Origin: Wolbachia endosymbiont of Onchocerca ochengi
GTDB lineage: Bacteria > Pseudomonadota > Alphaproteobacteria > Rickettsiales > Anaplasmataceae
Assembly (NCBI RefSeq): GCF_000306885.1
Contig: NC_018267.1
Coordinates: forward strand, 300,001 to 332,000
Direction of reading: 5' to 3'
Length of the DNA stretch: 32,000 nucleotides
In this document: piece after piece, positions 21,870 through 22,962 of the stretch
How the letters are laid out: the number at the start of each line of letters is the position of its first letter
How positions within the stretch are numbered: the stretch's first letter is position 1
Program-made: the position numbers and the translations under genes
The notes under the pieces: model-generated
The model's input: the letters and a program-made list of their open reading frames with translations, nothing else
Databases searched by the model: none
What the model was told of the DNA's origin: nothing

Positions 21870-22962
21870 CTTTATCTTCGCGCTTTTTTGTTGCTTTTGT
21901 AAACCCACTTACTTCTGTAAATAGGTAAAACTAGAATACTGATTTTCTAAAAGTTGCTCGCTTTCCTCTTTTACTATAACAGAGTCACCCTAAATTTCTA
22001 AATAAATCCCTGATTTTGATTTCTATTTCATTTACAACTCCTTTATTCATTTTGAGGTAATTTTTACATTTCCCTTCCTTTGTCCAAGGCACGTATTATT
22101 GTATGAATAATAAGTACCAGTTTTTTGAACACACTAAGTTTCACTCCTACATCTAGTATTTCCCTAAGTCTTGATATGCTATCATCATATATTATGTAAA
22201 ATTTTGCTTCTCTAAATAGAGGAGCAACTTTATCTTTATAATTTTAACTCTCGTTTCCTACTGTAACATTTTCCTTATCCCTTATTACACCAACCTTCCT
22301 GATATCAAGCATTACAGAAGATAAAACTTCAATACATTTCCGCCTATGGTAGTTTCATGATTCCCATACACTACTCCTATTTTCATATAAATTTGATTAA
22401 TAAATATTAATATGCGGTTTACTTTTGAAACTGCAGAGGTAAATTTTTGCAGACCATAACTTTAAAACTCTTGTTTGTAGCCCCATACGTTAATCACCAA
22501 TATCTCTTTTAATTTCACTTCTTAAAGTAAATGCTGCAACAGAACACACCAAACATTCAACAACATATAGAGCTTGTTCTCCAGTTTTTAGTTATAAAAT
22601 CACTAAACTACCAGCGTTTATTCCAAGTTTACGAGCATATATGACATTCAAATACATGATCATGATACATGCTTCGCATCAATAAACTTACATAACCCTC
22701 CTTTCTTCTTGAATCCAGCAATTACATGCAAAGCAAGAGTGGCCTTACCGGAACTCTTAGAACAAAGTATCTCAATTATACTTCCCTTTAGTAAACCTAA
22801 TACCAAAGAGCTAAATCAAGTGAAATTGATCCTATATAACACTGATCTATTTCCTCCACAAGGTTTTGCTTCAGTTTCATTATTACACCCCTACTAAATA
22901 CTTTTTCAATTTGACTTATCGTATTGTCTAATACTCTTCGCTTATCATTATTTCTTTCTCAT
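21870..22962 (-). pseudogene. recA: decayed recA (recombinase A)
   Basis: There is no ORF over 60 aa on this strand. Reverse-strand fragments follow RecA end to end. The first are [104 protein letters not shown] and IGD*RMGLQTRVL. They continue with [99 protein letters not shown]. Following the homology needs at least four frame changes and crosses several in-frame stops. The Walker A motif GPESSGKT has become CSKSSGKA. Confidence 0.9.

Follow-up and report, generated by a model that had tools for sequence, protein, structure and literature searches.

With very little room for doubt, the recA locus in the stretch of DNA analysed here (32 kb of the chromosome of wOo, the Wolbachia endosymbiont of Onchocerca ochengi; hereafter the window) is the orthologous recA of the supergroup C Wolbachia of Onchocerca, surviving as a long-dead pseudogene that is decaying neutrally, and none of our data contradict this explanation. 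To our knowledge, recA is among the most universally retained of bacterial genes. A bacterium that loses it is left without homologous recombination or recombinational repair. Supergroup C includes drug-target symbionts of the river-blindness parasite, and recA loss is the explanation published between 2012 and 2015 for the rearrangement-free, IS-free chromosomes and the strong GC skew of this group. That recA is dead in this lineage is correct and already published, first in 2012; our additions are modest: the lesions are catalogued base by base, with evidence that they are older than the separation of several Onchocerca Wolbachia strains.

Identity, extent and position of the recA relic

The relic and its landmarks are the following.

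21931-22976, minus strand: recA pseudogene, 1046 bp against 1068 bp in intact orthologues (tblastn, MAFFT alignment, and Pfam, NCBIfam and PDB matches)
22976-22974, minus strand: ancestral recA ATG (alignment to intact Wolbachia recA)
21933-21931, minus strand: ancestral recA stop codon, TAG (alignment to intact Wolbachia recA)
22660-22806, minus strand: longest surviving open reading frame in the recA frame, 48 aa, covering only positions 50-93 of the 321 in the RecA profile
23120-23857, plus strand: intact truA, divergent from recA and the anchor for its synteny with other Wolbachia

Residues 1-355 of the wStri RecA protein (355 aa, locus L013) match window positions 22976-21934 in two frames (tblastn, E 5e-50), which, together with the nucleotide alignment, bears out the claim of a first-pass annotation that RecA homology runs over the whole gene on the minus strand. 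The span given there, 21870-22962, placed the locus correctly, although at the 3' end it ran about 60 bases too far and at the 5' end it missed the first 14 bases of the gene. Once corrected for frame, the conceptual translation scores 262 bits against Pfam RecA (PF00154) and 56 bits against RecA_C (PF21096), matches the solved RecA structures of E. coli (3CMU, 2REB) with E values of about 1e-88, and is 69% identical to wStri RecA. Full-length homology, including the C-terminal domain, is present only after this correction. The corrected translation reaches 332 bits against the RecA equivalog model TIGR02012, just above its cut-off of 325, which indicates that erosion at the sequence level has been moderate while the gene is still clearly dead: the best real open reading frame, the 48-aa one, scores 48 bits on the same model, and it is the longest remnant found where a continuous frame of about 350 codons would be expected.

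The position of the relic is as informative as its sequence. It lies beside truA in divergent orientation, the orthologous site of intact Wolbachia recA, and an intact gene occupies this same truA-adjacent site in wStri, in wCtub and at loci L014, L015, L017, L020, L021, L022 and L026.

A catalogue of lesions

Lesions were listed from a nucleotide alignment (MAFFT) of the window recA to six intact Wolbachia recA genes. By this comparison the relic carries 13 frameshifting indels, made up of eleven 1-bp events scattered along the gene, a 1-bp insertion after codon 177 and one 14-bp insertion, as well as four premature stops in the ancestral frame (codons 6, 124, 168 and 336). The earlier count of four or more frame changes, with several in-frame stops, was thus true and understated. 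The larger or better-placed lesions are listed in the direction of the gene.

22959-22961, minus strand: first premature stop, codon 6, GAA to TGA, common to wOv and WOLB0982
22741-22764, minus strand: degenerate Walker A (P-loop), C-S-K-S-S-G-K-A, which is G-P-E-S-S-G-K-T in intact Wolbachia RecA
22652-22665, minus strand: 14-bp frameshifting insertion after ancestral codon 104 (alignment)
22594, minus strand: stop at codon 124, TAA (nucleotide alignment)
22541/22540, minus strand: junction of a 30-bp in-frame deletion that removed codons 142-151 (GAVDVIVIDS)
22490-22492, minus strand: stop at codon 168, CAG to TAA, where wDimm has TAG at the same codon
21992, minus strand: stop at codon 336, TAG (nucleotide alignment)

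Both nucleotide-binding motifs are affected. The Walker A sequence had been read as CSKSSGKA, which is exact: these eight residues lie within the open reading frame 22660-22806, and the window recA does not encode the GPESSGKT of its intact relatives. The Walker B strand (VIVIDS in Wolbachia) and its aspartate are missing through the 30-bp deletion. Both motifs were assigned from established knowledge of RecA and from alignment to the E. coli protein. In intact Wolbachia recA (region nt 415-463) the deleted segment is flanked exactly by 10-bp direct repeats, TCTG[G/T]TGCAG (TCTGGTGCAG ... TCTGTTGCAG), and because it lies between such repeats, an origin of the Walker B deletion by replication slippage is suggested. 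The 14-bp insertion, for its part, looks like a local duplication (TCATGATCATGTAT); at the same site, after codon 104, WOLB0982 has an insertion of 3 bp only.

A separate observation concerns a 1-bp deletion in an A-run (GTAAAAAATAAAG) at window position 22235 (ancestral nt 762), which is common to the supergroup C relics and to the unrelated relic of wLbra. This shared deletion is probably homopolymer homoplasy, and it counsels caution against reading shared 1-bp indels as shared ancestry.

The lesions recur in independent assemblies

All 13 frameshifts, the 30-bp deletion and the four stops are present in wOv (L034), which comes from another host species and a separate sequencing project and has one further 1-bp insertion inside Walker A. 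Five independent MAG contigs are 99.8-100% identical to the window over the 1.1-kb recA locus, with zero gaps. The sister strain WOLB0982 (L001), which diverges from the window by about 5% overall and by 8.8% over the recA locus, shares nine indel positions and three stops with the window recA and has additional lesions of its own. Across longer alignments, identity to the window is 99.57% for wOv (over 18.9 kb), 99.88-99.94% for the five MAG contigs and about 86% for wDimm, and the closed wOv genome (HG810405.1, 960,618 bp) and several MAGs encode an identical TruA protein. We take this recurrence as evidence that the recA lesions had arisen before several Onchocerca Wolbachia strains separated.

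The same comparisons make it extremely improbable that recA is really intact and only looks broken through errors of sequencing or assembly, such as the homopolymer errors of 454 reads. The wOo assembly did start from 454 data, and short A/T runs contain or adjoin several of the 1-bp indels. Errors of this kind, however, would have had to arise identically in the separately sequenced wOv and in five gapless MAG assemblies, and at nine positions in WOLB0982. They would also have had to spare the surroundings: seven flanking genes (truA, dnaN, ftsK, the glycosyltransferase-4 gene, rnhB, the virB8-like gene and holB; 7.1 kb) show no gap column when aligned to WOLB0982 and wOv. Likewise, between window positions 13124-32000 and wOv (L034), seven of seven indels fall in the recA relic, in the gene-free stretch described below or in one intergenic spacer (30208), and no indel lies inside any intact gene. 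Premature stops, the Walker A missense changes, the 30-bp deletion and the 14-bp insertion are in any case not homopolymer errors. In Darby 2012, moreover, Illumina reads served to correct the 454 assembly, and putative pseudogenes were inspected manually, with Illumina and transcript reads as the reference.

Neutral evolution of recA among selected neighbours

Substitutions in the relic have accumulated with little regard for codon position. Between the window and WOLB0982, recA differs at 33, 22 and 20 sites at ancestral codon positions 1, 2 and 3, a distribution for which uniformity is not rejected (p = 0.14), whereas the seven flanking genes together differ at 71, 47 and 152 sites (p = 2e-15 against uniform); the two distributions differ from each other (chi-square p = 3e-5). 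In the same comparison recA has diverged by 7.3%; the flanking genes have diverged by about half as much (3.8%), and their third positions by 6.4%, a figure near that of recA. The missing third-position excess, with a divergence close to that of flanking third positions, implies that recA was already unconstrained before the Onchocerca-associated strains diverged. Given the orthologous site, lesions repeated in independent assemblies and in a sister strain, and the loss of codon constraint, the first-pass annotation was right to regard recA as a true pseudogene.

The flanking genes also bear on whether the window belongs to a symbiont chromosome at all. Were it a nuclear Wolbachia-to-nematode transfer, everything in it would be decaying and a dead recA would tell us nothing about the symbiont, and Onchocerca genomes do contain nuclear insertions derived from supergroup C. 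Yet the other genes of the neighbourhood are intact, and their pooled third-position excess points to purifying selection. The locus also lines up collinearly with the closed wOv chromosome of 960 kb, and neither joint decay of the genes nor flanks of host DNA were found at the recA locus. We therefore give a nuclear transfer next to no probability and continue to treat the locus as a decaying recA gene of the bacterium itself.

Two of the seven neighbours behave differently from the rest. Both the virB8-like gene (29384-30064) and holB (30976-31806) are intact, and they differ from truA, dnaN, ftsK and the glycosyltransferase gene in lacking a third-position excess against WOLB0982 (13/5/13 and 9/13/14, respectively); these two genes may be under relaxed constraint or evolving fast.

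The genomic neighbourhood

Gene order in the window is collinear with wDimm, wCtub and wDcau, in line with the conserved housekeeping synteny that had been remarked on from the sequence. The features beyond the recA-truA pair to which the text refers are these.

18362-18436, minus strand: tRNA-Ala(TGC), from a scan with Rfam
18598-18670, plus strand: tRNA-Lys(TTT), from a scan with Rfam
19464-20675, plus strand: probable ankyrin-like relic, matching residues 225-633 of ankyrin-repeat proteins (about 690 aa) weakly and collinearly, with jumps between frames
25607-27730, plus strand: intact ftsK, 707 aa, with 4TM, alpha, motor and gamma domains

On the tRNA side lie ffh, a gene for an antiporter or NADH-dehydrogenase subunit, fabZ, ompH, bamA, rseP, sdhE and rpsA; recA is followed by truA, dnaN, yggT, ftsK, a glycosyltransferase-4 gene (Pfam Glycos_transf_4), rnhB, the virB8-like gene and holB. 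In a tblastn search of the window with all open reading frames of at least 100 aa from nine related loci, recA was the only fragmented gene, and no transposase or phage gene was seen in the window. An open reading frame of 979 aa (8190-11129, minus strand) has a single Pfam match, Pyr_redox_2 at residues 395-747, with long N- and C-terminal portions outside it.

The description of ftsK as still intact holds, since all four FtsK domains were found in its 707-aa product. Besides the resolution of chromosome dimers, FtsK acts in septal DNA translocation and cell division. Its retention in a bacterium without RecA is therefore no paradox.

Upstream of rpsA, tRNA-Ala and tRNA-Lys form a divergent pair, which accounts for the nucleotide conservation, in all frames, of 18189-18700 with wDimm, wCtub and wDcau; the Rfam scan of the whole window returned no RNA gene beyond these two. 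Between this pair and the recA relic, and immediately downstream of the latter, stretch 3.2 kb (18701-21930) of AT-rich DNA (GC about 27%) with no open reading frame above 81 aa, no Pfam match in any of the six frames and no similarity to the syntenic loci past the tRNA zone; in wDimm and wCtub this position holds next to no sequence. The ankyrin-like similarity within it comes from proteins of group A Wolbachia and of a Rickettsia endosymbiont, in blocks of 30-33% identity over about 140-150 aa, with E values down to 7e-12 when searched against the window by tblastn and of 7e-6 in the protein database. Judged from this similarity, 19464-20675 is probably a second, older pseudogene.

Expected consequences of recA loss

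Our catalogue predicts that translation from the ancestral recA ATG would halt at codon 6, after five codons. With 13 frameshifts breaking the frame, Walker A mutated and Walker B deleted, no RecA protein would be expected from the locus, and none of the downstream fragments would be able to bind or hydrolyse ATP. The bacterium would thereby lack RecA-dependent strand exchange, a view that the literature backs and that agrees with the collinear, IS-free neighbourhood. According to published surveys the rest of the homologous-recombination pathway (recFOR, recG, ruvABC) is gone as well, and this loss of recombination may be one reason why supergroup C genomes are free of IS elements and of rearrangement.

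One could ask whether the fragments are still put to use: RecA might be made in pieces or by recoding, or the 48-aa open reading frame might yield a small P-loop peptide. Residual use of this kind would require reading through all 13 frameshifts and four stops to yield a protein with a mutated Walker A and no Walker B, from a sequence whose substitutions show no codon-position constraint. The high identity of the conceptual translation to intact RecA could be cited in its favour, as could the report in Darby 2012 of some transcription from almost every wOo gene model, pseudogenes among them; the same paper, though, found pseudogene transcription to be low and detected zero peptides from pseudogenes. 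We consider continued use of the fragments to have a negligible chance of being correct, and retain the reading of recA as functionally dead.

In principle RecA function could be supplied from elsewhere in the genome, by another intact recA or by a RecA-like gene (radA/sms), while the pseudogene is real, and the view offered here spans the 32-kb window. The published whole-genome surveys nevertheless make such a copy very improbable, if slightly less so than the other alternatives considered above. Darby 2012 reports that wOo lacks RecA, RecG, RecFOR and RuvABC or has them only as pseudogenes, and Table 1 of Badawi 2014 (PMC4224334) marks recA 'P' (pseudogene, BLASTn-only detection) in both wOo and the D. 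immitis strain, with recF, recG, recO, recR, ruvA, ruvB and ruvC also 'P' in both; such surveys found no intact recA in wOo or wDimm. The same part of Badawi 2014 has addA, addB, priA and recJ kept in wOo, and priA 'P' in the D. immitis strain. Lefoulon 2020 (PMC8116671) did not find rec/ruv genes in wDcau, wOo or wOv. We thus favour a wOo genome whose only recA would be the dead one described here.

As to why this matters for the genome as a whole, Comandatore 2015 puts forward the idea that supergroup C genomes stopped rearranging because the recA pathway and IS elements had been lost. The suggestion made from the sequence alone, that RecA-dependent recombination is lacking and that this would fit the absence of IS and phage sequence and the frozen synteny, agrees with that proposal, with Lefoulon 2020 and with the cited passages of Darby 2012 and Badawi 2014. 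We would accordingly regard a causal tie between recA loss and genome stasis as a plausible reading drawn from this literature.

recA in other filarial Wolbachia

Elsewhere among Wolbachia, an intact recA stands beside truA in wCtub of supergroup J, in wStri and wPpe, and in seven further strains; the arthropod Wolbachia in our sample have the gene intact. For wBm, recA is reported intact in the literature, and the recombination pathway was described as complete by Foster 2005. Loss, where it has occurred, has reached different stages. In wDimm, a badly eroded N-terminal half is all that is left of the gene, and in wDcau (L024 9160-9547) the site holds only recA traces of 59 bp and 38 bp, so that recA is almost erased in these two strains, in contrast to the nearly full-length relic of wOo. 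Supergroup J is divided within itself, since wCtub (L009 8793-9857) has the gene intact and wDcau has traces only.

Both Litomosoides Wolbachia of supergroup D, wLbra (L010 8700-9775) and wLsig (L011 8720-9775), carry recA pseudogenes, and Lefoulon 2020 (PMC8116671) reports their recombination pathways as depleted. The two have in common a stop at codon 189 and three deletions of a single base (nt 329, 484 and 563). Because these lesions are common to wLsig and wLbra and are not shared with supergroup C, the comparison of sequences indicates that the Litomosoides strains lost recA independently.

Whether recA had already died before Onchocerca and Dirofilaria Wolbachia separated is a different matter. 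At codon 168, wDimm has a stop at the same place as the window (TAG versus TAA), and it has a 32-bp deletion that overlaps the 30-bp one. These coincidences are ambiguous evidence of a death before that split: in a control, bases derived in the Onchocerca clade were shared with the wDimm relic at nine sites and with the unrelated wLbra relic also at nine, and the 30/32-bp deletion is prone to recurrence by slippage, lying as it does between direct repeats. If recA did die before the Onchocerca/Dirofilaria split, the near-full-length relic of wOo would imply an unusually low rate of deletion in a genome without recombination.

It is tempting to combine these observations into a broader scenario, in which recA died in at least three separate filarial lineages (supergroup C, the Litomosoides branch of D, and wDcau of J) and in which the founding lesion of supergroup C was the in-frame slippage deletion of the Walker B strand between the 10-bp repeats. 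We put this forward tentatively, as a scenario that the lesions allow and that we judge somewhat more likely to be wrong than right. Such a lesion-level reading of repeated recA death may go beyond the papers cited, where the lineages are only reported as deficient.

Comparison with known systems

The recA pseudogene already on record for wOo (HE660029; Darby 2012, Badawi 2014) is almost certainly the same locus as the one in the window, and nothing substantive differs between them. Like the window relic, the published pseudogene is known at the nucleotide or frame-corrected level only. The passages on wOo recA cited from these papers contain no lesion-by-lesion description, and relative to them our catalogue adds detail only.

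Set against functional RecA, as represented by TIGR02012 and the E. coli protein, the corrected translation of the relic aligns from end to end, C-terminal domain included. The two differ in that the relic has no open frame, a mutated Walker A and a deleted Walker B strand.

The closest parallels outside Wolbachia are Buchnera and Blochmannia, gamma-proteobacterial insect endosymbionts in which recA loss has likewise been tied to extreme genome stasis and to the build-up of GC skew. Unlike these, the bacterium of the window is an alphaproteobacterium in a nematode host, and whereas recA is described as lacking in Buchnera and Blochmannia, the Wolbachia studied here keeps a nearly full-length relic of the gene.
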